Program-made: the position numbers and the translations under genes
The notes under the pieces: model-generated
What the model saw: the letters and a program-made list of their open reading frames with translations, nothing else
What the model was told of the DNA's origin: nothing
Database searches by the model: none
Shown: piece by piece, positions 1,960 to 47,110 of the stretch
Numbering within the stretch: position 1 is the stretch's first letter
Layout: each line of letters begins with the position of its first letter
DNA from: an uncultured bacterium
GTDB lineage: Bacteria > Myxococcota_A > Polyangia > Polyangiales > Houyiibacteriaceae
Assembly: GCA_938024995.1 (NCBI GenBank)
Contig: CALJDU010000006.1
Location: forward strand, 83,052 to 147,051
Reading direction: 5' to 3'
Length of the DNA stretch: 64,000 nt

Positions 1960-2045
1960 CTCAGCCGCGGGTTCCGGAGCACAGCGGAGAACGCGTGGCG
2001 ATGGCGCCGCAGATGCGGGAACCAACAATATCCTCAGGCCTCTTT
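1960..2045. repeat. Dispersed intergenic repeat, element X plus a truncated Y-like end (gcgggttccggagc.cagcggagaac…ggcgatggcgccgcag.tgcg)
   Basis: About 55 of 60 nt identical to 21304-21365; followed by aaccaacaatat, resembling the Y-element terminus. Confidence 0.5.
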
Positions 2046-2783
2046 GACCATCCGAACGAATGTCCGCATCCCGCGCAGCAGTTCGCGATCGTCCGTGAGT
2101 CGCTCGACCGACTTGGTCATCTCGTTGCAGACGCGGTCAACCTTGTGGTCGAAAGAAGCGAGCTGGGCTTGCTGATGTTGGACCTTGCGCGAGAACCCCG
2201 AGAGCTGCTCATCGGTGGTCTTCTTCTGCTGCTCCTGCATGTTCTCGAACGCGGCCTGGCGGGTCATCAAGGTGTCGACCTTGGTGAGGAGCGAGACGAC
2301 ATCTTCGCGGGGATAACGCGCGCGTTGCCGCATCTCGAGCAAGCGGACCTTGATGTGCGCGTAGACAATCGCGCTGGGTCGCAACAAGGTCGCGAGCAAG
2401 AAGAAGCCCGCGAACCAGTAGCCCAAAGACGAGAACGTCGTGACCGCCAGCGCGACCGCCGCGCAGAGCAGGTGACTCCCGAGAGAGAACGCGAGCAGCC
2501 AGCGCGCGGTCTTCTGCGCGTACTTGATGTCGCTCTGGCTGATCTCCATTTCGCGACGCTGGCTCTCGCGCTGATCGCGGTAAAGCCCACGTGCCTCCAT
2601 GTAGAGGTCCCACGGGAAGCGCAGCACGCTGTAGAGCATGACGACCCCAGCGGTCGCGATCGCGATGTCGAGCCAAGCGACGCCGTCGATGACCACGTTG
2701 GACCACTTGAGGATCGCCAGGCCGATCGCGCCGCATAGGAGCAAAGAGCCGAAGCCGAAAAGGGAGTTGTTGGCGCGTTTCAT
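2034..2783 (-). CDS. Hypothetical membrane protein with C-terminal coiled-coil
   Basis: Internal ATG at 2783 (MKRANNSLFGFGSLLLCGAIGLAI…) gives 249 aa with 4-5 TM segments then a Q/E-rich coiled coil. The upstream part of ORF 2034..3116 overlaps the next gene and is low-complexity. Confidence 0.45.
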   Translation of the reverse strand: MKRANNSLFGFGSLLLCGAIGLAILKWSNVVIDGVAWLDIAIATAGVVMLYSVLRFPWDLYMEARGLYRDQRESQRREMEISQSDIKYAQKTARWLLAFSLGSHLLCAAVALAVTTFSSLGYWFAGFFLLATLLRPSAIVYAHIKVRLLEMRQRARYPREDVVSLLTKVDTLMTRQAAFENMQEQQKKTTDEQLSGFSRKVQHQQAQLASFDHKVDRVCNEMTKSVERLTDDRELLRGMRTFVRMVKEA

Positions 2784-2826
2784 GAGGGGAGTGCCTAGGG
2801 TTGGAGAGAGTGGGAAAGGGAGCTGA

Positions 2827-4671
2827 CTACTCAGCGAGCATCTTGGCGACGACCTGCTCGAGCTCTTTCGCGCGGAGGCCCTCGGGCGCGATCGGGGCGC
2901 CGCACGCGACGCCGATCTTGGAGAACGCGCGGCGCGGCATGGCCCGCATCGGCTTCCCGTTCTTGAAGCTGAAGAAGCTGCCCCAGAGCCCCTTGAGGAC
3001 GACGGGGACGACGGGCACCTGGCGACGCGCGAGGATCTTCTCGACGCCGGGCTTGAAGGGGTTGAGCTGACCGTCGCGGGTGAGCTTTCCTTCCGGGAAG
3101 ATGCCGACCAGGTCACCGCTCGCGAGCGCGTGATCGATCTCGTCGAACGCGGCCTCGAGGAGCTCCGGGTCCTCGCGTCGCGACGCGATCGGGATGGCGC
3201 GCGTTACCTTGAAGAAGCTGTTGAGCACCGGCATCGAGAAGAAGTCGTTGCCCATGACGAAGCGGATCTGGCGCTCGGTCAGGCCGCCCAAGATGAAGGC
3301 GTCGACCCAGGAGACGTGGTTGCAGACGATGAGCGCCGCGCCTTCTTCCGGGATCTGATCGAGGCCCTGGACCTCGACGCGGTACATGAAGCGCACGAGG
3401 CGTCGAATCGCGACGTGGATGACCTCGCGGTGCGTGTGGATGAGACAGACGCCCGCGATGATGACGTTGAGCGAGAAGACCACCGCGAGGCGACCCGCGA
3501 CGCTGACCCCCGCCGCGGCGAGCGCGACCGCGAGGACGGTGGAGACGACCATGAAGCCGGCGTTCATGATGTTGTTGGCCGCGACCACGCGGGACTGCGC
3601 GCCTTCCGGAGCGCGGGCCTGCATCAAGGCGTAGAGCGGGACGATGAAGAGACCGCCCGCGGTGCCGACTCCGACCAGGTCGAGGTAAACGCGCCAGAGC
3701 TGATCACTCGTAAAGACCGAGGCCACGTACGCCAAGTCGAACCCGAAGGCGCTCAAGAGGAGCCCCGCGATCGGGACCAGGGCGACCTCGACTTTGCCGT
3801 GTGTCAGACGCTCACAGAGGATCGAGCCGAGGCCGACGCCCAGGCTGAAGACCGCGAGCAACGTGGTGACGCTCTGCTCGCCTGACGCGCCGGTGACCGC
3901 GAGCACCTCCTTGGCGAGCATCGGGAGCTGCCCAAGGAGGAACGCGCCGACGAACCAGAACCAGCTCGCGCCCAAGATGGAGAGGTGAACCGCCCGGTTC
4001 GAGCGACCGATCGCGAGCGCTTTCTGGGTCGCGCGGAACAGGTTGAGGTCAAGCGGAACCGAGCGCGCGGTGAGCGAAGGCGGCGCGTCGGGGATGAGGC
4101 GAGCGCTCGCGAAACCACAGAGCGCGGTGCCCAAAAGCGCGAGGGTCAGGGCGAGCGTCCCGATGGTCGGGAGCGCGATGATCATGCCGCCCGCGATCGT
4201 GCCGACCAGGATCGAGGTGAAGGTGCCGAGCTCGATCAAGGCGTTGCCCGCGACCAGCTCGCCGTCTTCCAGGTGCTGCGGCAAGACGCCGTACTTCACG
4301 GGTCCGAAGAACGCCGACTGGGAGCCCATCAAGAAGAGCGCGCCGAGTAGGAGCGGGACGCTCTCGATGAAGAAGCCGACGGTCGCGAGCGCCATGACGC
4401 CGACCTCCGCGAGCTTGAGGCCGCGGATGAGCTTCGCCTTGTCGACGCGGTCCGCGATCTGTCCCGCGAGCGCCGAGAACAAAAAGAACGGGAGAATGAG
4501 CAGGGCGGTGCACAGGTTGATCAAGAGCGAGAGCGACGCCCCCGACTGTGCCGCGGCACCAAACGTGAGGACGACAATCAGCGCGCTCTTGAGAACGTTG
4601 TCGTTCAGCGCTCCCAGGAACTGGGTGACAAAGAGCGGGGCGAAACGGCGAGTCTGGAGCAGGCGGAGCAT
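2827..4671 (-). CDS. MFS transporter fused to C-terminal lysophospholipid (PlsC-type) acyltransferase domain (LplT/Aas-like)
   Basis: N-terminal ~400 aa with 12 TM helices of MFS type. C-terminus has the HX4D motif (CNHVSWVDAFIL) and FPEGKLTRDG, an acyltransferase motif III. Confidence 0.65.
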   Translation of the reverse strand: MLRLLQTRRFAPLFVTQFLGALNDNVLKSALIVVLTFGAAAQSGASLSLLINLCTALLILPFFLFSALAGQIADRVDKAKLIRGLKLAEVGVMALATVGFFIESVPLLLGALFLMGSQSAFFGPVKYGVLPQHLEDGELVAGNALIELGTFTSILVGTIAGGMIIALPTIGTLALTLALLGTALCGFASARLIPDAPPSLTARSVPLDLNLFRATQKALAIGRSNRAVHLSILGASWFWFVGAFLLGQLPMLAKEVLAVTGASGEQSVTTLLAVFSLGVGLGSILCERLTHGKVEVALVPIAGLLLSAFGFDLAYVASVFTSDQLWRVYLDLVGVGTAGGLFIVPLYALMQARAPEGAQSRVVAANNIMNAGFMVVSTVLAVALAAAGVSVAGRLAVVFSLNVIIAGVCLIHTHREVIHVAIRRLVRFMYRVEVQGLDQIPEEGAALIVCNHVSWVDAFILGGLTERQIRFVMGNDFFSMPVLNSFFKVTRAIPIASRREDPELLEAAFDEIDHALASGDLVGIFPEGKLTRDGQLNPFKPGVEKILARRQVPVVPVVLKGLWGSFFSFKNGKPMRAMPRRAFSKIGVACGAPIAPEGLRAKELEQVVAKMLAE

Positions 4672-4781
4672 GCCCGTCGATATTGCGAATGCCGTGCCTC
4701 GCCGGAATGACTAAGGAATATTTGATTTACAAGGGGCGTCGAGCGTCGGGTGTACAGATCGATGTACGTTTTATGTACGCG

Positions 4782-5249
4782 CTAACGCTTGGCTTGAACG
4801 ATGTGGAAGAGCGCCATTCCAAGCACGGTGCCCGCGAGGACCACGAGCGCCTCTCGCTGAAGCGTGGCCGCGGTGGTGATCACCGGACCTGGGCAGAAGC
4901 CGCCAAGGCCCCAGCCGATTCCAAAGAGCGCGGCGCCGACGATGAGCGGTCGATCGATCACCGTCTTGGTCGGGAGGTGAAGCCGGCTCCGGAACACGGT
5001 CTCCTTCTTCTTCGCGATCGCGCGATAGACCGGCAGGTAGATCGCGATCGCGCCGCCCATGACGAGACCCAGGCTCGGGTCCCAGCTCTCGAGCCCGCGT
5101 GAGAAGTCGAAGAAGCCGATGACCTTGGACGCCTTTGTCATCCCAGCCAGCGCGAGCCCGATGCCAAAGATGCATCCAGACGCGAACACGGCGTACGCCT
5201 TTTGCGAGCGCTCCTTCTTTCGTTTGGACCTCTTCTTCGCCTTGCTCAT
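4782..5249 (-). CDS. YeeE/YedE family sulfur-compound transporter half (DUF395)
   Basis: GGFCPGP hallmark motif; 4 TM helices. Start taken at internal ATG 5249 (MSKAKKRSKR…); its ATGA overlaps the stop of the upstream paralog. Confidence 0.65.
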   Translation of the reverse strand: MSKAKKRSKRKKERSQKAYAVFASGCIFGIGLALAGMTKASKVIGFFDFSRGLESWDPSLGLVMGGAIAIYLPVYRAIAKKKETVFRSRLHLPTKTVIDRPLIVGAALFGIGWGLGGFCPGPVITTAATLQREALVVLAGTVLGMALFHIVQAKR

Positions 5250-5677
5250 GACAGGCCCCACACGGTGAACGCGGCGGTCGCCATGAAGGTGATGACCGCG
5301 ACGAGCGAACGACGAGAGAAGCGACTGAGCCCGCACACCCCATGACCGCTGGTGCACCCGCCGCCCAGCTGGGTACCGACGCCAACGAAGAGCCCGGCCG
5401 CGAAGAGCTGCGTGGTGCTGCGGTCAATGCCGAAGGTGTAGGCGTCGGGGACCATGGCCGAGATGCCGGCGCCCGAGAACACGAGCCCGATGATGAAGAG
5501 CGCGCGCCACGAGCGATCCGCGCTTCGGCCCGCCAAGAGCTGCCCCGTGATCCCGCTGATGCCCGCGATGCGCCCGTTGACGACCAAGAGCACCGCGGCC
5601 GCGAGGCCGATGAGGGCCCCGCCCGCGAGCGAGGCGTAGGGCGTGAAGTTCTCCATGCGCTTACGTTGCGGCACCAA
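5246..5677 (-). CDS. YeeE/YedE family sulfur-compound transporter half (DUF395)
   Basis: GGGCTSGHGVCG hallmark motif; 4 TM helices; 4-nt overlap with the downstream paralog. Confidence 0.65.
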   Translation of the reverse strand: MVPQRKRMENFTPYASLAGGALIGLAAAVLLVVNGRIAGISGITGQLLAGRSADRSWRALFIIGLVFSGAGISAMVPDAYTFGIDRSTTQLFAAGLFVGVGTQLGGGCTSGHGVCGLSRFSRRSLVAVITFMATAAFTVWGLS

Positions 5678-5730
5678 ACCGCCGCCGTCGAGTTCTCGCT
5701 GCGCTACCCTCTGCGGCTCAAGGAGACCAG

Positions 5731-6774
5731 ATGTTCTTTCGCCAACTTTTTGATCGTGACTCCTCGACCTTCACGTACTTGATCGCGGACGAGGAGACCC
5801 AGGAGGCGGCCTTGGTGGACCCGGTTCGGGATCAGATCGACCGTGACCTCTCGTTGATCGAAGAGCTCGGCTTCACGCTCAAGTACACGTTCGAGACCCA
5901 TGTCCACGCGGACCACATCGCGGCGTCCGGGATGCTCCGAAAGCGAGTCGGGAGCGAGTCCGTGATGGGCGCTCACGCGGGCGCGGCCTGTGCCGACCAC
6001 ATGCTGGGTCACGCGGATCGGTTTCAGTTGGGCAGCGTTGAGGTCGAAGCGCGACACACCCCGGGTCACACCAGCGGCTGCGTCAGCTTCGTCATTCCGG
6101 AAGAGCGCCTGGTCTTTACGGGGGACACGCTCTTGGTGCGCGGTTGTGGCCGGACGGACTTTCAGGAAGGCGACGCGGGGACGCTCTACGACTCGGTCCA
6201 TCAGCAGCTCTACTCGCTGCCGGATCACTTCGCGGTTTACCCAGGTCACGACTATCGCGGCCGAAGCGCGACCTCCATCGGAGAAGAGAAGCGCCACAAC
6301 CCGCGGCTCAAGAGCGAGGTGTCGCGCGACGCGTTCATCGAGATCATGGGCAACCTCAACCTCAGCCAGCCGCGCATGATCGCGGTCGCGGTGCCCGCCA
6401 ACCTGATGTGCGGCCTGGATCCCGAGACCACGCCGTGGGCGGTCGTCACGCACTCGGTCGATGGCGTCCCCGAGGTCGACGTCGCGTGGTTGCGAAGTCA
6501 CCGCGCGGAGGCGCTCCTGATCGATGTCCGCGAAGAAGAAGAGATCGTCGGTGAGCTCAAGATCTTGAGCGACGCCGAGCACGTCCCGCTTGGCATGCTG
6601 GGAGACGTCATGCGCAACGCCGACCGGGACGCGCCGGTCGTGATCATTTGCCGAAGCGGGCGCCGATCGGCCCGCGCGGTGGTCGAGCTCGGGGCGGCCG
6701 GGTTCTCGCGTTGTGCATCGCTCGCGGGTGGGATGATCGCTTGGTATGAGTCTCAGCCCGGCAGCTGCGGATAA
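5731..6774 (+). CDS. Persulfide dioxygenase (ETHE1-like MBL fold) fused to C-terminal rhodanese domain
   Basis: HVHADH metal-binding motif and an MBL fold (HxHxDH…H…D…H). C-terminal rhodanese with active-site loop CRSGRRS. Confidence 0.8.
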   Translation: MFFRQLFDRDSSTFTYLIADEETQEAALVDPVRDQIDRDLSLIEELGFTLKYTFETHVHADHIAASGMLRKRVGSESVMGAHAGAACADHMLGHADRFQLGSVEVEARHTPGHTSGCVSFVIPEERLVFTGDTLLVRGCGRTDFQEGDAGTLYDSVHQQLYSLPDHFAVYPGHDYRGRSATSIGEEKRHNPRLKSEVSRDAFIEIMGNLNLSQPRMIAVAVPANLMCGLDPETTPWAVVTHSVDGVPEVDVAWLRSHRAEALLIDVREEEEIVGELKILSDAEHVPLGMLGDVMRNADRDAPVVIICRSGRRSARAVVELGAAGFSRCASLAGGMIAWYESQPGSCG

Positions 6775-6802
6775 GCGCGGGCTGCCTCAGCAGGAGCGTT
6801 TC

Positions 6803-9352: not shown

Positions 9353-9471
9353 GCCCTGAGCCTGGAGGCTTCCCTGCGATCGTCAAGGATCTTCGTGCAA
9401 ACTCGTTAGCCTCAAAGACACTCATTTGGCCGGATGTTTGAGCGCGGGCTTCCGCGGAGTATCCTGTGTCT

Positions 9472-11858: not shown

Positions 11859-12008
11859 GCCTCGCACTTTTTTCATACACATGAAGTTGATGCACTCGCG
11901 AGAGATAATTTTGTGAATGATTACAACGAGTATGGCTCGGCGTAATCGTTGCATTCTTCCTACGCGGGTGCGTCTGCATCCGTTCGGATTTCGAGATTGG
12001 GTGAGACG

Positions 12009-14621: not shown

Positions 14622-14654
14622 CCACTGAAGCGATCGCTCCTGTTCTTCGCCGTC

Positions 14655-21268: not shown

Positions 21269-21295
21269 ACGTCGCTGTTAGATCATTTCCGCACA

Positions 21296-21480
21296 GGCGC
21301 TCAGGCGCGGGTTCCGGAGCGGAGCGGAGAACTCGCGGCGATGGCGCCGCAGGTGCGTAAACAAAGAATATTGGTTCCGAGCAGGCGCGTAGGCGCGAGG
21401 TCCGGAGCGAAGCGAAGACCGAGCGGCGTCAGCGCCGGCGGCGCGGAACAGAGAAATATCTCCTTTGACGAATTCGAGTT
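21296..21480. repeat. Composite intergenic repeat: element X (21304-21365) + MITE-like element Y (~21377-21470)
   Basis: The X part matches 1966-2025. The Y part is ~95% identical to the reverse complement of 46990-47100 and is flanked by aatatt…aaatat imperfect inverted ends. Confidence 0.55.
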
Positions 21481-29139: not shown

Positions 29140-29148
29140 CTCTTGGAG

Positions 29149-33026: not shown

Positions 33027-33177
33027 GCGTCGAGTTGTAGGCAAGTGTGCGAAAAGGTGGGGACAGTGCGCCCCATTTGAGCCAAATCGTCGCGTTTTCC
33101 GTTGTTCATGGTCTCAATAACATTAGCGTTATTGGTATTGGCGAGTTGGCTCGCCATTTGCTCTATTGGTGAGCGGC

Positions 33178-34323
33178 ATGGAACGGAACCCTCGATACAG
33201 ACTTATCTGCCTCTTGCTCGCGATCACTTGGATCGCGGCGGGCTGCATTGGAGACATCAGCCACGAGACGGCGAGCGATCGTCCCTATGACCCGGAGCCG
33301 GACATCGACGTGATGGAGGATCCGGATCCGATGGCAGACCCGGACCCGGACCCCGACCCCGAGCCAACGCCCGACCCGGATCCGGATCCGATGCCTGACC
33401 CCGATCCTGACCCCGAGCCCGAGCCTGATCCCGAGCCGACGCCCGATCCCGAGCCGATGCCGGATCCAGATCCGATGCCGGATCCAGATCCGATGCCCGA
33501 TCCGGACCCGACGCGTGAGTGTTACACAGAGGAGCTCCACCCCGAGGCGGACATCTCCGACATCGTCGCGCGCTACGGAGGCGCCGATTGGAAAGACGAG
33601 CTCATCCAGGCGGTCTCACGACGCCACCCAGCGAGCGGTTTCCTGCTCGAGGCACAGCGTGATGACAGCTACTTCACGACGTTCTCCGATCCGAGCAACT
33701 GGACGAACATGGTCGAGTGGCTCGACACGCTCGTTCACGAGCAGACGCACCTCTTCGACGCCTATCACGCGATCGCCCGCGGCGAGTACCACAGCATCTA
33801 CGTTCGTGAGGACGCGATTCACTACTTGGACTCGTCTATCGATGGCTTCCCGCGTCGCGAGATCCTCTCGATGGTCCGCGTTCACCCCAGCGGCCAGTAC
33901 GCGACGACGTACCTGACCGGCTACCAAGGGGATCGCGGTTTCATCCCGATGCTCGACGAGACCGCGTCGTACATCAACGAGCTCGCGACGCTCTCGGTGA
34001 TGGGTGAGTACTACCCAATGCACGGCGTCTCGCTCCGCGATGGCTCAGTCGCGTTTCTCTACTTCCTCCAGCTCTACCTGAAGCGCGCGCGCGAAGCGCA
34101 TCCGGAGTTTTACGATCGCATCCGCCGCAACGCGACGGTTCAGGAGATCGTGAAGACGCACTGGCTCCGCACGCACTTCTTCTTGGAGTACGCCGACCGC
34201 TTCCCGCGGCTCGGGATCAGCGATGGTGACTATCGTGAAGCCATGTACTGGCCGGAGAACCTGATGGAGATCGAGATGTTCCTCGGGCGTCGGGTCGGCG
34301 ACTCCAACTGCTTTCTCGACTGA
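33178..34323 (+). CDS. Lipoprotein with Pro-Asp repeat linker and C-terminal HExxH (zincin-like) domain
   Basis: Signal LICLLLAITWIAAGC; ~90-aa (P-D/E-P) repeat; HEQTHLFD matches HExxH. Confidence 0.5.
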   Translation: MERNPRYRLICLLLAITWIAAGCIGDISHETASDRPYDPEPDIDVMEDPDPMADPDPDPDPEPTPDPDPDPMPDPDPDPEPEPDPEPTPDPEPMPDPDPMPDPDPMPDPDPTRECYTEELHPEADISDIVARYGGADWKDELIQAVSRRHPASGFLLEAQRDDSYFTTFSDPSNWTNMVEWLDTLVHEQTHLFDAYHAIARGEYHSIYVREDAIHYLDSSIDGFPRREILSMVRVHPSGQYATTYLTGYQGDRGFIPMLDETASYINELATLSVMGEYYPMHGVSLRDGSVAFLYFLQLYLKRAREAHPEFYDRIRRNATVQEIVKTHWLRTHFFLEYADRFPRLGISDGDYREAMYWPENLMEIEMFLGRRVGDSNCFLD

Positions 34324-34375: not shown

Positions 34376-34576
34376 GTGGTGCTTCGACAGGACGACAACG
34401 GAAACGTTTTTGAGGTGAAGCGGTTCGCCGACGAGTCCGCCGCGAACGAAGTCGCGGTCGCGATGGAGGCGAAGGGTCACAAGCAGATCTACTGGGTCGA
34501 GCGACTCGCAGATCATGCGCGGAAGAAAGATCACCTGAACGATCTCGAGACAGGCGCACAGATCTCCCGGTTTTGA
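34376..34576 (+). CDS. Small hypothetical protein (66 aa)
   Basis: GTG-start ORF; hydrophilic; opposite-strand alternatives are low-complexity. Weak call. Confidence 0.25.
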   Translation: MVLRQDDNGNVFEVKRFADESAANEVAVAMEAKGHKQIYWVERLADHARKKDHLNDLETGAQISRF

Positions 34577-34893
34577 GCTTCCAAGTGCGCAGACTTCGTA
34601 CGCGAGGGTTGACACTTCTCACACAGGCCCCATCCTTTAAATAGGGGATGACCGACCGCGACGAAAAAGGGCTGCTTGAGAAGGCCAAAGACGCGGTCCA
34701 GGGAATGGTCGACTCCATCGTCGAGACCGTCGCGGAGGTGCTCGCACCCGAGCCGCAGCTCATCCCGATCCCGGTTCGCCCCCGTCGTCCGAGGCGCCGC
34801 CGAACGCGACGTCGGTACTGACCGCGGTCTCGACGACCACGTCTCGACGACCACGTCTCGACGACCCGACTCGATTTCGCGCATCCTCCCGGC

Positions 34894-36213: not shown

Positions 36214-36223
36214 ACTCGGGCGG

Positions 36224-37102: not shown

Positions 37103-37224
37103 ACTTAATGTCTAAGTTGAACTAGGGTTTGAGTCAACGCTGTGTCAGTTTTTTGAGTTTAAACCTTGACGCCCGTAGCACTTATGCCTAACTAAAATGC
37201 AACCATGCTTATACAGGAGTGTAA

Positions 37225-38625
37225 ATGCGTCTAAGTTTGATTCTAGGTTTGGCTCTCTCTCTCATGACCGTCGGCTGTGGCGACGATGATACGGGTGTTG
37301 AAGACACCGGTTCACCCGATGCGGGTGACACGGGTGGCGAAGACACTGGTGGGGGTGGTTCCGCGATGGTCCGCCTGCTTCATCTCTCGCCCGATGCGCC
37401 CGCGGTCGACATCTTCCTGAACGGCGAGCGAAGCCCGCTCACCGGTCTCGCGTTCCCGAACGGCACGCCGTACGCCGAGCTTCCCGCCGGCTCCTACGAC
37501 GTCGACATCGTCCCCGCGGGTGGCGAGATCGGCGACAGCGTCTTGACCGTTCAGGACCTCGCGCTCGAAGCCGACACCATGTACTCGGCCGCCGCCATCG
37601 GCACCGTTGCGGGTGACCCGGCTCTCGCGGCGCTCCCGATCGTTGACTCGGCCGCTGACCTCGACGCTGCGAACATCCGCGTTCGCGCGATTCACGCCGC
37701 GGCTGCGGTGGGCCAGGTCGACATCTGGAACATCACCGATCCCGCCGCGCCTGCTGCGCTCTACGAAGACGTCGACTTCGGCGTCGCCGGAGACGCGCTC
37801 GACGTACCGGCCGGTGCCTACACGATCGGTCTCGACGTCGACGACGACGCCACCCCCGACGTGATCTTCGAGCTCCCCGAGCTCGCGGGCGGCACGGTCG
37901 TCAATCTCTACGCTGTCAACGACATGGAGGGCAACGTCTTCATCCAGGCGGCGCTTCCGGACGGCACCTACGCGCGCATCGACCCGACCGAGGCCGGCTC
38001 CGCGATGGTCCGCCTCCTTCACATCGCGAACGACGCGCCCGCGGTCGACATCTTCATCAACGGTGAGCGCAGCCCGGTCACCGGTTTTGAGTTCGGCGAG
38101 ACCACGCCGTACGTAGAGCTCGACGCCGGCGCCTACGAGATCGACATCGTTCCGGCTGGCCTCGAGCTCGCTGACAGCGTGTTCAACATCCCGTCCCTCG
38201 CGCTCGAAGCGAACACCTCCTACTCCGCGGCGGCCATCGGTACGCTCGCGGGCGACCCGGCGTTCTCGGTTCTCCCGATCGTCGACAGCGGCGCCGACCT
38301 CGCGGACGGCAACATCCGGGTCCGCGCGATCCACGCGGCCTCCTCCGTCGGCCAGGTCGACATCTGGAACATCACCGACACCCCCGCGCCGCTCTACGAA
38401 GACGTGGATTTCGGCGTCGCGGGTGACGCGCTCGACGTGCCCGCGGGCGCCTACACCATCGGCTTCGATGTCGACGACGACGCGACCCCCGACGTGACCT
38501 TCGCGCTCCCGGATCTCCCGGCGGGCACGGTGGTCAACCTCTACGCCGCGAACGAGATGGACGGCACCGTCTTCCTCATCGCTGCGCTTCCCGACGGCAC
38601 CTCCGCGCGCATCGACGCGGAGTAA
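37225..38625 (+). CDS. Lipoprotein with two tandem DUF4397-like domains
   Basis: Signal LALSLMTVGC|GDDD; two ~205-aa repeats, each starting GSAMVRLLH(L/I)(S/A)(P/N)DAPAVDIF(L/I)NGERSP…. Confidence 0.55.
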   Translation: MRLSLILGLALSLMTVGCGDDDTGVEDTGSPDAGDTGGEDTGGGGSAMVRLLHLSPDAPAVDIFLNGERSPLTGLAFPNGTPYAELPAGSYDVDIVPAGGEIGDSVLTVQDLALEADTMYSAAAIGTVAGDPALAALPIVDSAADLDAANIRVRAIHAAAAVGQVDIWNITDPAAPAALYEDVDFGVAGDALDVPAGAYTIGLDVDDDATPDVIFELPELAGGTVVNLYAVNDMEGNVFIQAALPDGTYARIDPTEAGSAMVRLLHIANDAPAVDIFINGERSPVTGFEFGETTPYVELDAGAYEIDIVPAGLELADSVFNIPSLALEANTSYSAAAIGTLAGDPAFSVLPIVDSGADLADGNIRVRAIHAASSVGQVDIWNITDTPAPLYEDVDFGVAGDALDVPAGAYTIGFDVDDDATPDVTFALPDLPAGTVVNLYAANEMDGTVFLIAALPDGTSARIDAE

Positions 38626-38677
38626 CAAAGGCTCTGCAGCTCCCGCTGCGAGATTCCAATTCTCCTCTGCCGCGCCG

Positions 38678-39979: not shown

Positions 39980-39994
39980 GACGCCCGTGACGCG

Positions 39995-41257: not shown

Positions 41258-41322
41258 GCCGTCGGTGTAGCACGTCGAGTAGATGTTCACGCGCCGGTCC
41301 GCTCGCCTGATAGAACGCCTGC

Positions 41323-42567
41323 GTGCACGTCCGTTTCCTCAATGAACAGAGCGAGGCCGCGCAGATCGCCGCTTCCCTCTCGCGCCGGGACGGTTTCGCT
41401 TGGTTGGACGGCGACGGGAGCGCGGCCGGGCGGTACTCCTTCCTCGCCTGTGATCCCGTCGAGCTCCTGAGCGCGTCTTCGCTCGACTCGCTCACGGCGC
41501 TCTCGCGGTTTGCGCGTCCGCGCCCGTCGACCGCTTGCGGCCACGTGCCCCGTTGGATCGGCTACCTCACCTACGACGCGGCTTCTCCGTTGCCGGGGCG
41601 GGTGGAGCCCGCGCTTTGGTTTGGTCGATACGACGCGGTGCTCGCTTTCGATCATCAAGAACGTGAACTGATCTTGGTCGCCGATGATCGCGCCGCGGCG
41701 GATCGTCTGCTCGAAAAAGCGATGGCGCCAGCACCGCCAGCGCCACCGCCTCGCGTAACGAACCTCGTAAGCGCTCCGTCCGCTGAGCACATCGACGCCG
41801 TCGAACAAGCGCTGGCGCACATCGCCGCCGGCGACATCTATCAGGTGAACCTCGCTCGTCGCTGGCGCGCTGACTTCGAGGGCGATCCGCTTTCGCTTTT
41901 CGTCGCCATGAAGCGCGCGAGCCCGGTTCCCTTTGGGATGTTCCTCGCGACGCCAGACCTCACGTTGTGCGCGCGAACCATGGAGCGGTTCCTCTCGTGG
42001 GATGAAGGTCGGCTTTGCTCGAGCCCGATCAAAGGGACGATCCCGCGGTCCGGGCGAGACGAAGCGGAAGCGACGGCGTTGCGAAGCGATGACAAGGAGC
42101 GCGCCGAGCACGCGATGATCGTGGATCTCGTACGGAACGACCTGAGCAGGGTCGCGGAGCTGGGCACCGTTCAAGTGGAGGGCCTGATGGCGGTCGAGCC
42201 GTACGCGAAGCTCTCACACTTGGTCACGACCGTTTCATGCCGCCCTCGCGTGGACACGCGTCTCGTGGATGTGGTGCGCGCGACGTTCCCGCCTGGCAGC
42301 GTCACCGGGGCGCCCAAGATCAGAGCCTTGGAGATCATCGCGGCGCTTGAGCCTGCTCCGCGCGGGGTCTACTGCGGCGCGGTAGGTCACGTGAATCGCG
42401 ACGGCGCGCTGCGGCTCGCGGTCGCGATTCGAACCGCGGTGCTGCGAGGGCGGGAACTCGTCTATCACGCCGGCGGAGGGCTGGTATCCGCAAGCGACCC
42501 GCAGCGCGAACTCGCTGAAACGGAGCTGAAGGCGCGGGTCTTCCTGGACGCGATCGAGAGCTTTTGA
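41323..42567 (+). CDS. pabB: Chorismate-binding enzyme, aminodeoxychorismate synthase component I (PabB)-like
   Basis: Chorismate-utilising C-terminal domain: …SSPIKGT…, …PPGSVTGAPKIRA…, …VYCGAVG…. Confidence 0.7.
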   Translation: MHVRFLNEQSEAAQIAASLSRRDGFAWLDGDGSAAGRYSFLACDPVELLSASSLDSLTALSRFARPRPSTACGHVPRWIGYLTYDAASPLPGRVEPALWFGRYDAVLAFDHQERELILVADDRAAADRLLEKAMAPAPPAPPPRVTNLVSAPSAEHIDAVEQALAHIAAGDIYQVNLARRWRADFEGDPLSLFVAMKRASPVPFGMFLATPDLTLCARTMERFLSWDEGRLCSSPIKGTIPRSGRDEAEATALRSDDKERAEHAMIVDLVRNDLSRVAELGTVQVEGLMAVEPYAKLSHLVTTVSCRPRVDTRLVDVVRATFPPGSVTGAPKIRALEIIAALEPAPRGVYCGAVGHVNRDGALRLAVAIRTAVLRGRELVYHAGGGLVSASDPQRELAETELKARVFLDAIESF

Positions 42568-42671
42568 GGGCAAGTAGCTCTGCATTTGCTGTCGAAGCAT
42601 CGCGCGAGAAACTAGATTAGAATTTAAAAGCCTGCGTTTCTGAGAAAAGATCAGAAACTTTGCTGATTCAG

Positions 42672-42699
42672 TTGACACGCGGGGAGGGCGGCGTTAAAT
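42672..42699 (+). promoter_or_regulatory. Sigma70-like promoter candidate (TTGACA-16 nt-TTAAAT) inside an AT-rich block at the left edge of the tRNA island
   Basis: ttgacacgcggggagggcggcgttaaat; the only strongly AT-rich patch (42600-42670) in a 68% GC context. Confidence 0.3.
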
Positions 42700-43594
42700 C
42701 AGAGACACGATGGTTCGCACCACTCAAACACAAAGTCCCAACACGAGGCGCTATGCGTCCGTAACGGCGACGAATGAGTGCCCTGAGGCCCTTCGACTCT
42801 CGTTCAAATCAATCAGATCCATGTTTTCCCCTTCGTTTATGTCGACCACGAGTCATCACGTTCCGAGCGAGCGTGAGGTTGCGCGTCAGGCCCTGGCCTG
42901 CGCGGACGCGGCTTGGGTGTTGGCCCAAACGTCCCCTGTTCAGAAGCCGAGCGTTCTTCGCGGTCTTGACCTCGACACCCACGGCATTTGTGATGGAGGA
43001 GAAAACTAGGCGGTTGCAGAAAAGACTCATGAAGTCCTTTCTCAAGCTGCCTCCCCCGAGGTGGCTTTTTTTGTGTTCGTCGTCTTCGGGCCATGTTCAC
43101 CACGCCTGACCGCTTGACCGCCTCTCCAGACCGATTTCAACAGCCTTCACCTCCACCACCCATCCTCAAGGACTCCGCCTTCCAGAGCGTCCCCCATGAA
43201 CTCCTCGCAGCCCTCGCAACCTCCAGATCTCATCGGCGCTCTGCCTGCTTCGCGCGGCTTGGGTCCAGATCGAGGACCGCTTTCAGCGTCGCTTTGGTGT
43301 CGGATCGTGGGCGTGAGGGCCACGAAGCGTATTTTGCGCGGTGGACAAACGGTGAATATGGATGTGACAAACAAAGAAGAGAGTCATATCAAACGATATA
43401 AAATGTCATTTGGAGACGTGAAAGTGCTCCAAAGCATCGAGAGCCACATGTCTGAGCCTTTCAGCCGCCTCGGCGGTACCGCAGCGCGCATCGCGTGTCT
43501 TCGCGGACAGGGAACGCTCCGCTCGGGTTAGCTACGAGGTCGCACCGCGATCCACGAGCCGCCCGAGCATTCGAGGCGGCTCTTTTTGTTCTCA

Positions 43595-43673
43595 ACGAGC
43601 GGAGCCGTTGGTGCGGCACGCGGGTTGTAACCCCGCCGGCTCTGTCCAAGGAGGTTCGATTCCTTCCCGCTCG
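43595..43673 (+). tRNA. tRNA-Tyr (anticodon GUA), class II with long variable arm
   Basis: Acceptor cgagcgg/ccgctcg perfect; anticodon arm gcggg-TTGTAAC-cccgc; 13-nt variable arm; T-arm ggagg-TTCGATT-ccttc; short D-loop. Confidence 0.5.
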
Positions 43674-43678
43674 ACTGG

Positions 43679-43836
43679 GTTTTGGGAGGGTCTGTTCGGA
43701 CCCTCCCTCCAAATAGCCAAGTGATTTGGAGCCTCCCTCCTACGTTCGCTTCGCTCAGTTTTTGGAGGGTCTGTTCGGACCCTCCCTCCAAATAACCAAG
43801 TGATTTGGAGCCTCCCTCCTACGTTCGCTTCGCTCA
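43679..43836. repeat. Two tandem 79-bp copies of array repeat family (hairpin ggagggtc-tgttcg-gaccctcc + tail ttggagcctccctcctacgttcgcttcgctcag)
   Basis: Directly visible; copies 43679-43757 and 43758-43836 are ~97% identical. Confidence 0.8.
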
Positions 43837-43941
43837 TCGCTCCTTCGTCGCTCTTGTTCGTGCTCGCGTGCGTTCGTTTCCTCGTCACTCGCTTCGCTCG
43901 TTTTCGCCAACCCAACCCAACCCAACCTCAACACACAACAC

Positions 43942-44013
43942 GGGGCATTAGCTCAAAGGCTAGAGCAGCCGGCTCTTAACCGGTCGATCAGGGTTCGAGT
44001 CCCTGATGCCCTA
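43942..44013 (+). tRNA. tRNA-Lys (anticodon CUU)
   Basis: Canonical cloverleaf: ggggcat / gctc-aaaggct-gagc / gccgg-CTCTTAA-ccggt / caggg-TTCGAGT-ccctg / atgccct. Confidence 0.75.
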
Positions 44014-44167
44014 CCGCGCTCACGCGATCTCCGGATCGCCGCGGCGCCACGGCCGAGGTGCGCGCTTCGCGAGCCTCACGACCCTCGGGTCACCGTTGTT
44101 CTCGTTCTTTTGAAAACTCATGGATCGGTCGCCATCGGGCGCTCGATCTCATCTGAAGCACACACGT

Positions 44168-44240
44168 TCCGGATTGGTCCATTTGGTGAGGGCGCACGGC
44201 TCTGAACCGTGAGGGCGGGGTTCAAATCCCTGATCCGGAT
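44168..44240 (+). tRNA. tRNA-Gln (anticodon CUG)
   Basis: U1-A72 acceptor (tccggat/atccgga); D stem gtcc/gggc; anticodon arm cacgg-CTCTGAA-ccgtg; T-arm cgggg-TTCAAAT-ccctg. Confidence 0.6.
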
Positions 44241-44572
44241 CTGGTGTTCGCCTCGGTCATGCACGGGCTGCGTATTCGCGCTTGTCATCGACCAAGGCTG
44301 TGCCGCGGGACTCGTCCCGTTTTCAACCTGCTCGTCTCTCGGAGGAGAGGCGGGTGGAGCAGGTCGCTCCCCAAGGGAACGTCCTGGTGCTTCAGAGCTC
44401 CTTGAAAATCTGGGGACGCAGGGCGGTGTAGCGCCTGCCCTGCTCAAGTTCATTCGGTCTCGTGCCGCGTGGAGAGTTCACGCTCTTCGCGCGGCACGTC
44501 AGACCGGTATTCGTCGGGCCACCGTCCCCATCGATCGCTTCACCGTGATCGATGGGAGGGCCCGGCGCGTAT

Positions 44573-44647
44573 TCCGCTGAAGCTCATTGGAAGAGCACCC
44601 GGCTGTTAACCGGAGGGGTGCAGGTTCGAGTCCTGCCGGCGGAGCCA
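44573..44647 (+). tRNA. tRNA-Asn (anticodon GUU)
   Basis: tccgctg…cggcgga-G-CCA; loop CTGTTAA; T-arm gcagg-TTCGAGT-cctgc; CCA encoded. Confidence 0.75.
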
Positions 44648-44650
44648 AAT

Positions 44651-44723
44651 GTTTGGGTGGCGTAGCTGGTGCGCGCGCTTGGTTGAAGCCCAGGAGGAGC
44701 TGGTTCGATCCCGGCCCCAAACA
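44651..44723 (+). tRNA. tRNA-Phe (anticodon GAA)
   Basis: gtttggg/cccaaac acceptor; D gcgt/gcgc; anticodon arm cttgg-TTGAAGC-ccagg; T gctgg-TTCGATC-ccggc. Confidence 0.7.
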
Positions 44724-44761
44724 CCGGTCGATGGCTGTCATGCAGCCAGCGACCAAAGCAA

Positions 44762-44837
44762 CCGCTTGTCGTCTAACGGTTTAGGACGCTCGTCTGATAC
44801 ACGGGCAATGGAAGTTCGATTCTTCCCAAGCGGACCA
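44762..44837 (+). tRNA. tRNA-Ile (anticodon GAU)
   Basis: ccgcttg/caagcgg acceptor; anticodon arm ctcgt-CTGATAC-acggg; T ggaag-TTCGATT-cttcc; CCA encoded. Confidence 0.6.
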
Positions 44838-44902
44838 TGTTCTGTTCGACGGAACGAAAAACGCGCCGCCGAGGCGACGCGTTCTACGCTCTTCCGAGCC
44901 GC

Positions 44903-45955
44903 CTACCAGCGCACGAAGCGCGAGATGCGGCGCACGCGGGAGTGGCTGGAGCCATCCGAGTCGAGCGAGAGCTCGGCGAGTGTGGTGGAGTTTACGTGCG
45001 GGCCCACCGAGCTGTCGGAGACCGGGCTGTTTGCGTCGGCGCCGAGGTTGTAGGACCAGCATGCGCTGTAGTGCTGAGTCACGCTTGCGTACGCGGTCGA
45101 GCAGTTCGTGGTCGGGGAAGTGTCGTCGTCGCGGTCGAACGAGGACCAGCCCGCGTTCACCTGCGAGTTGAAGACGCCCATCGAGCCCGAGACGAACGTC
45201 GCAGAGATGCGCATTCGAACGGGATCGAACGCGCTCATGTCCGCGCGGACCGCGATTCGCTCAACGCCTCGTCGGTCTTCGAACACATCCATGAGGTCTC
45301 CTGTCGCGGCGATCTCGTAGAGCGAGCCATCGTAGAAGTTGGAGTTGATGCTGGGGCGACCGCGTCGCTCGAGGCGATTGCCGTAGGGGATGCGCCAGAA
45401 CTGAAGGGTGTTCGTTCCGAGGAGCGAGTTGTAGAGAAGCGCCCAACCACCACCGTCGAGCTCTTGCTCGCAGTACACCTCGACGACTTCCGAGCCAAGC
45501 ATCAGCCAGGTCGGACCCGATCGCGTCAAGCCTGCGTCACGCGCGGCCGCACAGCTCGCGGCGGGGTTGTCCATCGTCAATCCAGGGAGCGCGGGACCGG
45601 CTGCACCCGGTGCGCCGTCCATTCCTGGAGTTCCGGCGGCACCTGGTTCACCCGGCGCACCATCCGCTCCGTTCGTTCCGTTGATGCCGTCGGTGCCGTT
45701 CATCCCGGGCATGCCGGGGGCGCCCGATTCGCCGTTACAGATGGCGACGATCTGCTCGCCCGCTTGTATCTCGGCACCACCGTTCGCGCATCGCGGATCA
45801 CCCATGGGGATCGGCGTGACGCTCGGTGCGGGACCTGGCGTACCCATCGTGCCCATCTCGCCCATCGCGCCCATCTCTCCAGGCGGACCTTCTGTGCCTG
45901 TGCAGGCAACCAACAGTGTGAGCGCCGCGAGGGCAACCAGCTTCAAGTTGTTCAT
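44903..45955 (-). CDS. Lipoprotein with collagen-like Gly-X-Y triple-helix repeats and C-terminal fibrinogen-related (FReD) domain (ficolin-like architecture)
   Basis: Signal MNNLKLVALAALTLLVAC|TG. Two interrupted GXY runs: GPPGEMGAMGEMGTMGTPGPAPS … GESGAPGMPGMNGTDGINGTNGADGAPGEPGAAGTPGMDGAPGAAGP (about 18 GXY triplets in total), then …YCEQELDGGGWALLYN…FWRIPYG…NCSTAYASVTQHYSACWSYNLGADANSP resembling the fibrinogen C-terminal domain. Start at internal ATG 45955. Confidence 0.6.
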   Translation of the reverse strand: MNNLKLVALAALTLLVACTGTEGPPGEMGAMGEMGTMGTPGPAPSVTPIPMGDPRCANGGAEIQAGEQIVAICNGESGAPGMPGMNGTDGINGTNGADGAPGEPGAAGTPGMDGAPGAAGPALPGLTMDNPAASCAAARDAGLTRSGPTWLMLGSEVVEVYCEQELDGGGWALLYNSLLGTNTLQFWRIPYGNRLERRGRPSINSNFYDGSLYEIAATGDLMDVFEDRRGVERIAVRADMSAFDPVRMRISATFVSGSMGVFNSQVNAGWSSFDRDDDTSPTTNCSTAYASVTQHYSACWSYNLGADANSPVSDSSVGPHVNSTTLAELSLDSDGSSHSRVRRISRFVRW

Positions 45956-46039
45956 GTCTAACGATCTCCGAAAACCGGGGATCGAAGCGTCCTCCAAATA
46001 GGTCACGTTGGTTCGATTTGACCTGCTCTGTACAGATTT

Positions 46040-46111
46040 GCTCTCGATGCTCGATGGACGAGCAACCGTCTTCTAAACGGCTCGCTGCGGGTTCGACTCC
46101 TGCCGAGAGCG
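46040..46111 (+). tRNA. tRNA-Arg (anticodon UCU)
   Basis: gctctcg/cgagagc; D gctc/gagc; loop CTTCTAA; T gcggg-TTCGACT-cctgc. Confidence 0.7.
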
Positions 46112-46115
46112 CCGG

Positions 46116-46189
46116 ACCTTCGTGGCTCAAAGGAAGAGCGCGCGTTTCCTAAACGCGTGATGAGAGTTCGAGTCTCTCCGAAGGTGCCA
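46116..46189 (+). tRNA. tRNA-Arg (anticodon CCU)
   Basis: accttcg/cgaaggt; D gctc/gagc; anticodon arm cgcgt-TTCCTAA-acgcg; T gagag-TTCGAGT-ctctc; CCA encoded. Confidence 0.75.
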
Positions 46190-46262
46190 ACGATCTGGTG
46201 GCTCTACGCGCAGCGCTATCGCTTCGCTCACGGGCTTGCTTGCAAGCTCATCAAGTTCTTTA

Positions 46263-46335
46263 CGCCGGGCTCTGGGAAAGCTGGTTGGTTTCCAAATCCG
46301 ACTGCAGGCGAGGTTCAACTCCTCGACTGTGTTTT
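46263..46335 (+). pseudogene. tRNA-Trp-like pseudogene (CCA anticodon loop, degraded acceptor/D-arm)
   Basis: Near-identical to the 46467-46541 copy but with a broken acceptor 3' strand and a T·T in the anticodon stem. Confidence 0.3.
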
Positions 46336-46412
46336 TTGGAGGGTCTGTTCGGACCCTCCCTCCCAACGAACAAGTAGTTGGGAGCCTCCCTCCTACGTTC
46401 GCTTCGCTCAGT
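46333..46412. repeat. Array repeat family copy (hairpin + tail)
   Basis: ttggagggtctgttcggaccctccctcccaacgaacaagtagttgggagcctccctcctacgttcgcttcgctcag. Confidence 0.8.
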
Positions 46413-46466
46413 CGGATTCGCTTCGCTCATGGCTTGCTTGCACGCAGCCGTCAGCACCTTTTACGC

Positions 46467-46541
46467 CGGGCTCTGGGAAAGCTGGTTGGACTCCAAATCC
46501 GACTGCAGGCGAGGTTCAACTCCTCGACGGCGTGCCGCGCT
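46467..46541 (+). pseudogene. tRNA-Trp-like element (anticodon CCA), non-canonical D-arm; possible pseudogene
   Basis: Acceptor acgccgg/acggcgt (6/7 bp); anticodon arm ttgga-CTCCAAA-tccga; T cgagg-TTCAACT-cctcg; no foldable D stem. Confidence 0.3.
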
Positions 46542-46567
46542 CAGATGAGCGTTCCTTTGCAGTGATG

Positions 46568-46636
46568 AGTGGTTCTGGGGAGGGTTCATACCCCTCCCTT
46601 CGTCAGTTCGATTCTGACCGCTGCATCTGAGTTTCT
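46568..46636 (+). pseudogene. tRNA-Met-like element (anticodon CAU) with truncated D-arm
   Basis: Acceptor tgcagtg/cgctgca; 7-bp anticodon helix with loop TTCATAC; T gtcag-TTCGATT-ctgac; 5' half is 4 nt short. Confidence 0.3.
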
Positions 46637-46710
46637 TGGAGGGTCTATCCGACCCTCCCTCCCAACGAGCAAGTAGTTGGGAGCCTCCCTCTTTTGTTCG
46701 CTTCGCTCAG
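46632..46710. repeat. Array repeat family copy
   Basis: ttggagggtctatccgaccctccctcccaacgagcaagtagttgggagcctccctcttttgttcgcttcgctcag. Confidence 0.8.
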
Positions 46711-46847
46711 CGGGTTCGCTTCGCTCACGTCGTGCTCGCTGGCGTCAGCTCGCGAGCAGGAGAGCAAAAAACTGTCGGTCGTTCGTCGACCATGGCGGCA
46801 CGGCGGGCCGTCGCGTGCATCGGTGCGAAAGCAACGGTGCGCGCTTT

Positions 46848-46919
46848 GCCTTTCAAGCGTAGATGGCGACGCCCTCCGCTCGTAACGGGGAGAGCTGGGT
46901 TCAAGTCCCAGGAAAGGCT
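46848..46919 (+). tRNA. tRNA-Thr (anticodon CGU)
   Basis: gcctttc/gaaaggc; D gcgt/acgc; anticodon arm ctccg-CTCGTAA-cgggg; T ctggg-TTCAAGT-cccag. Confidence 0.7.
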
Positions 46920-46926
46920 CTGAGTA

Positions 46927-47003
46927 TTTTGGAGGGGCTGTCCGCCCCTCCCTCCCAACGAACAAGTAGTTGGGAGCCTCCCACCCATGTTCGCTTCGCT
47001 CAA
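46927..47003. repeat. Array repeat family copy (ggagggg-ctgtccg-cccctcc variant)
   Basis: Followed directly by MITE-like element Y (46990-47100). Confidence 0.8.
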
Positions 47004-47110
47004 TATTCTTTGTTCCGCGCCGCCGGCGCTGACGCCGCTCGGTCTTCGCTTCGCTCCGGACCTCGCGCCTACGCGCCTGCTCGGAACCAATATCGTTCGC
47101 TTCGCGAACT
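46985..47110. repeat. MITE-like element Y (reverse-complement copy of 21377-21470)
   Basis: ~95% identity over ~95 bp to the rc of the 21.4-kb copy; imperfect inverted termini. Confidence 0.55.

Follow-up and report, generated by a model that had tools for sequence, protein, structure and literature searches.

Are the short repeats in the intergenic spacers of this DNA two different mobile elements, one element in two forms, or not mobile at all? A preliminary description of the 64-kb stretch that we analyzed (the window) had reported two MITE-like elements, X and Y, and had taken them to link the chromosomal backbone to a genomic island through a shared repeat. Its picture of small, dispersed, noncoding repeats with the appearance of insertions was confirmed, but the separation into two elements was not: X and Y align over their whole length and are two subtypes of one ∼90-base noncoding, hairpin-forming repeat family.

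Copies of the repeat and their surroundings

An HMM and a covariance model alike detected exactly four copies in the 64 kb, with E values of 2e-20 to 2e-25 (nhmmer) and 1e-23 to 3e-33 (covariance model). A degenerate 30-nt core pattern matched four times in the window, compared to no match in 100 shuffles. The intervals originally given for X (1966-2025 and 21304-21365) and Y (21377-21470 and 46990-47100, the second inverted) are close to real repeats, but those for X cover only the middle of the element. What had been noted at 2.0 kb as a truncated Y-like end following X is the right terminus of X itself. At 21.3 kb, where X and Y had been described as juxtaposed, the two do adjoin, but as two members of one family in a head-to-tail tandem (c2 and c3) with one ATAT common to both.

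Table 1. Positions of the repeat copies, of an isolated core match, and of empty paralogous sites in the window
Feature	Coordinates	Strand	Details
c1, X-type	1947..2031	+	ATAT 1947-1950, body 1951-2027 (77 nt), ATAT 2028-2031
c2, X-type	21280..21371	+	AGAT 21280-21283, body 21284-21367, ATAT 21368-21371
c3, Y-type	21368..21459	+	ATAT 21368-21371, body 21372-21455, ATAT 21456-21459
c4, Y-type	47003..47093	-	ATAT 47003-47006, body 47007-47089, ATAT 47090-47093
Isolated 10-mer GTTCCGGAGC, identical to the element core	1921..1930	+	Ends 17 nt left of c1
Empty paralogous site CTCA-GTAT-CGTTCG	49280..49293	+	Read directly from sequence
Further empty paralogous sites	49515-49528, 49750-49763; inverted at 50095-50108		Read directly from sequence

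The element body measures 77-84 nt in all copies, with the left arm of c1 being 7 nt shorter than those of the others. The X-type pair shares 87% identity and the Y-type pair, in opposite orientations and 25.6 kb apart, 95%; X and Y copies are ∼68% identical and alignable end to end. Conservation peaks in the center (TCCGGAGCnnAGCGrAGAmC) and is lowest at the termini, which differ both between and within subtypes. The Y copies have a stop in the frame that the X copies leave open, and thus no frame is conserved across subtypes; apart from one spurious 50-aa ORF, searches with the translated element retrieved no protein homologues. The isolated 10-mer GTTCCGGAGC gave no HMM or covariance-model match; it may have been left by another copy or may match by chance.

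As initially proposed, all four copies are intergenic, i.e., placed between genes or tRNAs. c1 begins 3 nt past the stop of a 249-aa gene and 67 nt separate it from the next start; its 154-nt spacer is flanked by two minus-strand genes, and c1 is therefore antisense to their transcription. c2 begins 12 nt past the NUDIX stop (21268) and is followed by c3, whose end lies 72 nt from the peroxiredoxin start codon (21532). c4 sits between tRNA-Thr (46848-46920) and tRNA-Gly (47355-47427), within one unit of the spacer repeat of a tRNA array. Relative to local transcription, c4 is antisense like c1, and c2 and c3 are sense. The flanks of the four copies are mutually unrelated.

Hairpin fold and insertion sites

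Each copy folds as one long imperfect hairpin, which both strands are able to form. Secondary-structure prediction, suggested as a check in the preliminary description, gave MFE folds with the same long stem in all four copies, with modest folding z-scores against shuffles (-1.0 to -1.9). In the consensus structure, 98.8% of cells are paired over 21 pairs, compared to 28 to 54% in register-shifted controls, and variable columns are rarer among paired (11/42) than among unpaired (26/42) positions (p=0.002). Compensatory changes occur in 3 pairs of the consensus stem; they support it weakly, since only two independent lineages contribute. The structure itself was built from the sequences on which it is assessed. 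The ends are imperfect inverted repeats (5'-TKGTTCCG on the left, CGGAAC-N4-6-A-3' on the right), and their terminal pairing (helix 1) holds in 95.5% of cells. Moreover, each arm carries its own small palindrome (GCGC-N4-GCGC and GCGGCG-N4-CGCCGC). Rfam 15 returned no match at the gathering threshold; a search of the loci at E<=10 gave two matches of 13-14 bits, which is chance level. Promoter and terminator scans of the element revealed no signature.

Precise insertion is shown directly at the tRNA-array site by comparison of filled and empty sites. The filled site of c4 reads GCTCA-ATAT-[83 nt]-ATAT-CGTTCG with the right flank CGTTCGCTTCGCGAAC, while four paralogous empty units with this same right flank read GCTCA-GTAT-CGTTCG. 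This comparison yielded the target-site duplication that had been proposed for checking, of 2-4 bp and with one mismatch: its length is ambiguous (TA, TAT, or ATAT) next to the G/A mismatch, and the one-base discrepancy of the empty sites, GTAT instead of ATAT, counts against the mobile-element reading. ATAT is also palindromic, so that part of it could be element terminus. The tetranucleotide is rare, with 21 occurrences in 64 kb, 6 of them bracketing the copies; the left flank of c2, AGAT, differs from it by one mismatch. The c2/c3 tandem has a single ATAT at the junction and another at its distal end; insertion of one copy into the target duplication of the other would produce this arrangement. 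The aatatt/aaatat ends of the preliminary description are indeed inverted, but are best read as the duplicated 2-4 bp target (TA/TAT/ATAT) beside the imperfect terminal inverted repeat TKGTTCCG. At the second locus, the NUDIX-to-peroxiredoxin spacer comprises 263 nt here and 56 nt, without the element, in a relative whose peroxiredoxin is 85% identical; the divergence of that spacer prevents alignment, and insertion here thus cannot be distinguished from loss there.

A probable mobile element and its alternatives

We consider it likely, on balance, that the copies form a single family of nonautonomous miniature mobile elements with an ∼84-nt body, moved in trans and inserted at TA sites with duplication. 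The family is best read as MITE- or REPIN-like, restricted to its lineage, and with a target duplication of 2-4 bp. Such an element would itself encode nothing; its hairpin arms bear the terminal inverted repeats, which are short and imperfect. Its transposase would be encoded at another place in the genome and would move it in trans into a TA-containing site (TAT/ATAT), presumably duplicating 2-4 bp. Copies would be tolerated right after stop codons, in tRNA spacers, and ∼70 nt ahead of a following gene. As to a cut-and-paste or copy mechanism, the enzyme class, and any effect on neighboring genes, we can only infer. Small size and absent coding capacity are those of a MITE. Four copies with unrelated flanks lie in the 64 kb, and one is implied on another contig. 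DDE-type MITEs are usually most conserved at their termini; the reversed pattern here counts against the MITE reading. A Pfam scan of 40 window ORFs revealed no transposase, integrase, or RAYT in the 64 kb.

The additional copy was indicated by a single-frame search of the translated element against 1.84 billion representatives, in which 21 residues of a 50-aa database protein (P0121) were identical to the translated X element. P0121 lies on a contig of 147,508 nt and the window on one of 289,398 nt, which would imply a fifth X-type copy on another contig. Two concatenated multi-frame translated queries retrieved no copy among the 8000 candidates listed, which low-complexity sequences may have filled. 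Scans with a degenerate 28-30-nt core pattern that matches all four window copies revealed no full-length copy in 185,579 species-representative genomes, JGI metagenomes, and IMG/VR, only motif-level chance matches, none of which was a full element by nhmmer. BLASTN in distant mode against phages and plasmids gave no match. A doublet motif, TTCGCTTCGCTCA-N3-8-TTCGCTTCGC, was rejected as a candidate: in viral contigs it marked only unrelated tandem or iteron-like repeats, on phage contigs of 33-54% GC without tRNAs. Contigs obtained by exact-protein look-ups fell almost wholly within the window, with one extending 755 nt beyond its right end, and the look-up of a 422-aa SDR protein (first residue V or M) returned no record. 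Literature searches on the sequencing-run accessions and on MITEs in myxobacteria found nothing relevant.

That the copies reflect a local segmental duplication, which together with the lack of any further copy would have refuted the preliminary description in its own terms, or an assembly artifact is extremely improbable. Two assemblies from the same sample do disagree inside c3, with a 17-nt deletion in L001, and the Logan contig L002 begins exactly at its end. However, c2 and c3 are present in an independent ENA assembly and c1 in an independent Logan assembly, and the copies are nonidentical (68-95% identity). Segmental duplication was ruled out because the flanks of all four copies are unrelated and because P0121 points to a further copy on another contig.

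A REPIN/REP-like or IS200/IS605-derived (PATE-like) origin, i.e., a single-stranded hairpin moved by a single-copy HUH tyrosine transposase (RAYT/TnpA), deserves some weight, although we regard it as rather unlikely. The element would then insert 3' of a short sequence, for instance (A/G)TAT, and the right ATAT would be a cleavage site belonging to the element and not a target duplication. A single hairpin takes up the whole element, its pairing is preserved by compensatory changes across the two independent lineages, and the arm palindromes permit the "clover" alternative fold discussed for REPINs; weak terminal inverted repeats and extragenic copies, located right after stop codons and partly in tandem, point the same way. 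Nevertheless, conservation is central here and not at the ends as in REPINs, no Y1 transposase is present in the window, and no GTAG-type REP head motif was noticed at the ends. Target duplication also explains more simply how the filled and empty sites differ and why the tandem has only one ATAT at its junction.

Alternatively, the repeat could be a nonmobile structured module that acts in cis or binds a protein, for instance, an mRNA 3'-end stabilizer, a decoy hairpin, or the putative site of a factor that also recognizes GAGCGAAGCGAA in the tRNA-array spacers. Recombination or gene conversion would have spread it, and selection would have kept its conserved center. The greater conservation of center and apex over the ends and the constrained stem columns agree with such a module. 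So does the fact that two of the loci place the repeat alike, directly behind a stop codon and with ∼70 nt left to the following start. In addition, the Y-type apex carries the 12-mer GAGCGAAGCGAA, which is found ∼20 times among the array spacer repeats; with one mismatch allowed, it matches 29 times in the window versus 1.4 times expected. Still, we judge this explanation improbable. Relative to local transcription, some copies are sense and others antisense; the insertion within the tRNA spacer is sharply bounded and accompanied by a short duplication; the searches described above gave neither an Rfam match nor a promoter or terminator; and the close relative lacks the element in its orthologous spacer. 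Even more speculative, and in our view very unlikely, is that one sequence-specific factor, e.g., an HNH endonuclease encoded in the array at 51338-51880, could recognize the element apex GAGCGRAGCGRA and the array 12-mer alike. If so, a single system, distinct from an ordinary transposase-driven MITE, would have produced both X/Y and the ∼105-nt array spacer units, and it would seed or remodel tRNA arrays beside the replication origin. The repeat would pose a new mechanistic question only if a function were shown for the motif that it has in common with the array spacers.

Implications and comparison with known systems

The proposed link between backbone and island did not stand. No island was demonstrated: the window contains no integrase or transposase, the tRNA array is ∼5 kb from dnaA, and its GC content is only 3-5 points below that of the rest of the window. 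The "link" thus reduces to the same repeat having landed in the tRNA array. The occurrence of the repeat both in the array and elsewhere on the chromosome shows that the two have exchanged repeats, which argues against a very recent arrival of the array. Overall, the repeat is genuine, though as miniature mobile elements go it is rather ordinary. With it, a poorly sampled Myxococcota-like lineage, represented here by an uncultured bacterium, gains a small palindromic mobile repeat, and the insertion inside the tRNA array is unusually clean. In practice the repeat is useful as a strain marker; the two source-sample assemblies disagree inside one copy.

Like REPINs, the element is ∼70-110 nt long and extragenic, forms a long hairpin with compensatory changes and an alternative two-hairpin fold, and occurs occasionally in tandem clusters (PMC3116915). 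Compensatory changes are reported to be common in REPINs, whose REP 16-mer ends are most and whose spacer is least conserved (PMC3116915); here, in contrast, the ends are variable and the center is conserved. Also unlike REPINs, the element shows an apparent 2-4 bp duplication at its insertion site, and the window has no RAYT. Small size, subterminal hairpins in both arms, and a short fixed left-flank sequence are found in PATEs, which derive from IS200/IS605, as in the element; unlike PATEs, it has an identical tetranucleotide on both sides and empty-site evidence, resembling a duplication. Correia/NEMIS of Neisseria and the pneumococcal RUP are MITEs with a TA-type target duplication. They differ from the element, whose terminal inverted repeats are short and poorly conserved, whose center is conserved, and whose host is GC-rich and Myxococcota-like; we know of no sequence similarity between them, and their IS630- or IS5-like transposases have no counterpart in the window. 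In other respects they resemble it: Correia/NEMIS and RUP are noncoding, ∼100 nt long, and fold as whole-element hairpins by means of their inverted ends, and, like the element described here, they are intergenic near gene ends, have a short TA-containing duplication, and form subtypes within a genome. They are cotranscribed with neighboring genes in either orientation, as the element may be.

One repeat family with two subtypes

Two small repeats in the window, X and Y, had been described preliminarily as separate elements. A window-wide repeat scan found the X stretches (1957-2031 and 21297-21371) to be 87% identical and grouped the Y stretch at 21385-21459 with them in one direct-repeat family, D15. 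With 68% identity between Y and X across 75 nt, they constitute two subtypes of one family rather than two elements. The Y copy at 21.4 kb was 95% complementary to 47006-47102 across 97 nt (family I2). Alignment, a profile HMM and a covariance model (searched with filters off) alike yielded exactly four full-length copies in the window, c1 to c4, with nothing further credible, and a degenerate 30-nt core pattern matched all four but none of 100 shuffles; the repeats are therefore real. What had been taken for a truncated Y-like end following X at 2.0 kb is the right terminus of X itself. The reported juxtaposition of X and Y holds as adjacency, but not as a meeting of two distinct elements, since c2 and c3 both belong to the family and stand head to tail in tandem. 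The core 10-mer GTTCCGGAGC occurs again at 1921-1930, its end 17 nt left of c1, and could be a remnant of a further copy or a small local duplication.

Coordinates of the element copies and of features in and beside the tRNA array
Feature	Position	Strand or orientation	Details
c1	1947-2031	+	X-type; four-way alignment, profile HMM, covariance model
c2	21280-21371	+	X-type; same three methods
c3	21368-21459	+	Y-type; same three methods
c4	47003-47093	-	Y-type; same three methods
tRNA array	43596-54780	all +	34 genes; tRNA annotation
Collagen/fibrinogen-like ORF	44903-46006	-	within array
HNH endonuclease ORF	51338-51880		within array
tRNA-Sec-like	52515-52599		Rfam match, 53.3 bits vs gathering score 47; no ARAGORN call
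ORF with weak PHROG match	52901-54589		phage "RNA-binding protein"; within array
ruvC-like	56182-56676		just right of array
dnaA	60074-61504		three DnaA domains, E=1e-67; just right of array
~105-nt spacer repeat	46927-47002	direct	example
~105-nt spacer repeat	49208-49307	direct	example
~105-nt spacer repeat	50081-50184	inverted	ends 76 nt ahead of next tRNA
~105-nt spacer repeat	50565-50665	inverted	hairpin end directly against next tRNA

Each copy has a body of 77-84 nt with ATAT at both sides, except for c2, which has AGAT on the left; of the 21 ATAT occurrences in this 64%-GC window, 6 bracket copies. The left end reads T(G/C)(G/C/A)TTCCG, and the right end CGGAAC or a degenerate form, followed by an A-rich tail. 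In reverse complement, the right end of c1 (ATATTGTTGGTTCC) corresponds to the left end of the Y type (ATATTGGTTCC), indicating a short, imperfect terminal inverted repeat. Conservation was highest in the central block TCCGGAGCnnAGCGrAGAmC, not at the termini. Folding predictions gave one and the same long imperfect hairpin for all four copies (-34 to -39 kcal/mol; modest z-scores of -1.0 to -1.9), with a small palindrome inside each arm. The consensus structure comprises 21 pairs, with 98.8% of cells paired versus 28-54% when the register was slid, compensatory changes between X and Y types at 3 pairs, and variable columns at 11 of 42 paired versus 26 of 42 unpaired positions (Fisher p=0.002), statistics that represent two independent lineages only and a structure derived from the same sequences it is tested on. 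No reading frame common to both subtypes was conserved among the four copies, no promoter- or terminator-like signal was found in the element, and an Rfam search returned no family for it.

An ENA assembly of the same sample (contig L001, 180-181) lacks 17 nt of c3 (window 21421-21437), a GAGCGGCGTCAGCGCCG-like stretch corresponding to the small palindrome of the right arm. Position 1 of Logan contig L002 is exactly the end of this gap, which reflects either variation within the population or a tangling of the assembly graph by the repeat.

Insertion sites and genomic setting

Copy c4, located between tRNA-Thr and tRNA-Gly of the array, interrupts one unit of a different, ~105-nt repeat that makes up the array spacers. 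The filled unit reads ...GTTCGCTTCGCTCA-ATAT-(83 nt)-ATAT-CGTTCGCTTCGCGAACTCGG, versus ...GTTCGCT(TCGCT)CA-GTAT-CGTTCGCTTCGCGAACTCGG in the unfilled paralogous units at 49.28, 49.52 and 49.75 kb and, inverted, at 50.10 kb. Comparison with these four units indicates a precise 87-nt gain with a 2-4 bp duplication (TA, TAT or ATAT), consistent with the mobile repeats that the preliminary description had envisaged. One G/A difference beside the duplication is unsurprising because the paralogous units are only 62-84% identical. The c2/c3 tandem, located between a NUDIX gene (stop 21268) and a peroxiredoxin-like gene (start 21532), has one ATAT where the two copies join and one at the far end, the pattern that would be expected from one copy inserting into the other's target duplication. 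In the nearest database relative (sister sample ERZ6863577/ERR9287619; peroxiredoxin 85% identical), the gene order upstream-gene/NUDIX/peroxiredoxin is kept and the NUDIX-peroxiredoxin spacer is element-free, with 56 nt versus 263 nt in the window; its divergence precludes alignment, and whether the element was gained or lost does not follow from this locus alone. The window's peroxiredoxin has its best named relative in a Polyangiales MAG (65% identity). Together with window genes for FG-GAP/ASPIC proteins and a CarH-like MerR/B12 regulator, this points tentatively to Myxococcota as the source lineage.

Copy c1 occupies a 154-nt spacer with two minus-strand genes either side, starting 3 nt past the stop codon of one (249 aa) and ending 67 nt short of where the other, an SDR-like gene, starts. 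Both orientations relative to local transcription occur (sense, c2 and c3; antisense, c1 and c4), which argues for a DNA-level element and against a strand-specific RNA gene.

The tRNA array and other repeats of the window

The element had been proposed to link the chromosomal backbone with an island. A chromosomal repeat does occur in the array as well (c4), but the island itself was not borne out: searches of the region revealed neither an integrase nor a transposase, and its GC content (59-63% in 2-kb windows) compares with 64% overall. The array lies ~5 kb from dnaA with ruvC between, a position that makes it probably close to the chromosomal replication origin; a mobile origin of the array is possible. 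The listed start of the ORF with the PHROG match overlaps two tRNAs, so its true start must be downstream.

The second, unrelated ~105-nt family fills array spacers from 43650 to 50665, with at least nine direct copies, several beginning 5-8 nt past a tRNA 3' end, and two inverted ones. Its units consist of a GGAGGGGC-TGTCC-GCCCCTCC hairpin, a CTCCCAAC/GTTGGGAG hairpin and tandem GTTCGCTTCGC motifs, and are terminator-like on neither strand. The 12-mer GAGCGAAGCGAA at the Y-type hairpin apex (21405-21416 and 47045-47056) recurs ~20 times in array spacer repeats (43745-52302); with one mismatch allowed, 29 matches were found in the window versus 1.4 expected. X-type copies carry GAGCGGAGCGGA or GAGCACAGCGGA at this position. 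The likeness is confined to 12-13 nt, and a viral-contig scan for the doublet motif returned unrelated repeats only. The two may have converged on a simple pentamer repeat, or they may have a binding site in common; the more exotic reading is considered very unlikely.

Further repeats comprised family D11 (61869-62766), a ~635-nt internal duplication in a DUF4397 protein gene (37225-38625; families D4 and D7, 76-83% identical) and two coding low-complexity tandem repeats, one Asp-Pro-rich with an 18-nt period (33300-33539, in the 385-aa ORF 33166-34323), the other Gly/Met/Asp/Thr-rich with 18- and 30-nt periods (55036-55152, in ORF 54919-55716).

Distribution, origin and comparison with known elements

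Exact-pattern scans of species-representative genomes, JGI metagenomes and viral contigs returned core-motif matches only, none a full element, and BLASTN against phages and plasmids gave no match to it. The family thus looks lineage-restricted, the searched DNA collections evidently lacking the source genome. When the translated c2-c3 region was searched against 1.84 billion representative proteins, the one match was a 50-aa database "protein" (P0121; E=3.7e-4) in which 21 residues coincide exactly with the translation of the X element (FRTGAQARVPERSGELAAMAP) between different flanks. As it lies on a 147,508-nt contig other than the window's own metagenome-assembled contig of 289,398 nt (ENA ERZ6863655/Logan ERR9287624), there is at least one further copy, the fifth, outside the window; two repeats of the search with multi-frame queries gave no match. 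The sequence GCTCAGCCAAGCGTGTCCTCCGGAGCGAAGCGAAGAAC on two metagenome contigs (FWWM01001124, L004, 7827-7865; FWPU01001210, L005, 765-803) resembles the left-central part of the element. The likeness runs slightly past the pattern that found it (nhmmer E=4e-4, after selection), includes neither terminal parts nor a hairpin partner, and is probably a chance match.

We conclude that the copies form one MITE/REPIN-like family with direct insertion evidence, and that the preliminary interpretation was partly right. Local segmental duplication, its own alternative to dispersed insertion, is ruled out by the unrelated flanks of all four copies; with c1, c2 and c3 also contained in independent assemblies, artefact or duplication together retain next to no probability. 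A non-mobile structured or protein-binding module would account for the conserved centre, but fits poorly with two orientations, sharp insertion boundaries and absence from the relative's spacer, and we consider it unlikely. The sequence data favor, with reasonable though not high confidence, a non-autonomous miniature element, functionally a MITE, that would be moved in trans and would insert at a TA-containing site with duplication of 2-4 bp. The main rival is a hairpin element resembling REPINs or IS200/IS605 that would be mobilised in single-stranded form; it is distinctly less probable, a duplication being the better fit to the empty-site and tandem-junction data.

Against a textbook DDE-type MITE count the weakly conserved termini and strongly conserved centre, and the lack of any transposase in a Pfam scan of 40 ORFs of the window. 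The full-length hairpin, compensatory changes and small palindrome in each arm resemble REPINs, but in REPINs it is the ends that are conserved and the spacer that varies (PMC3116915), the opposite of the conservation pattern seen here.
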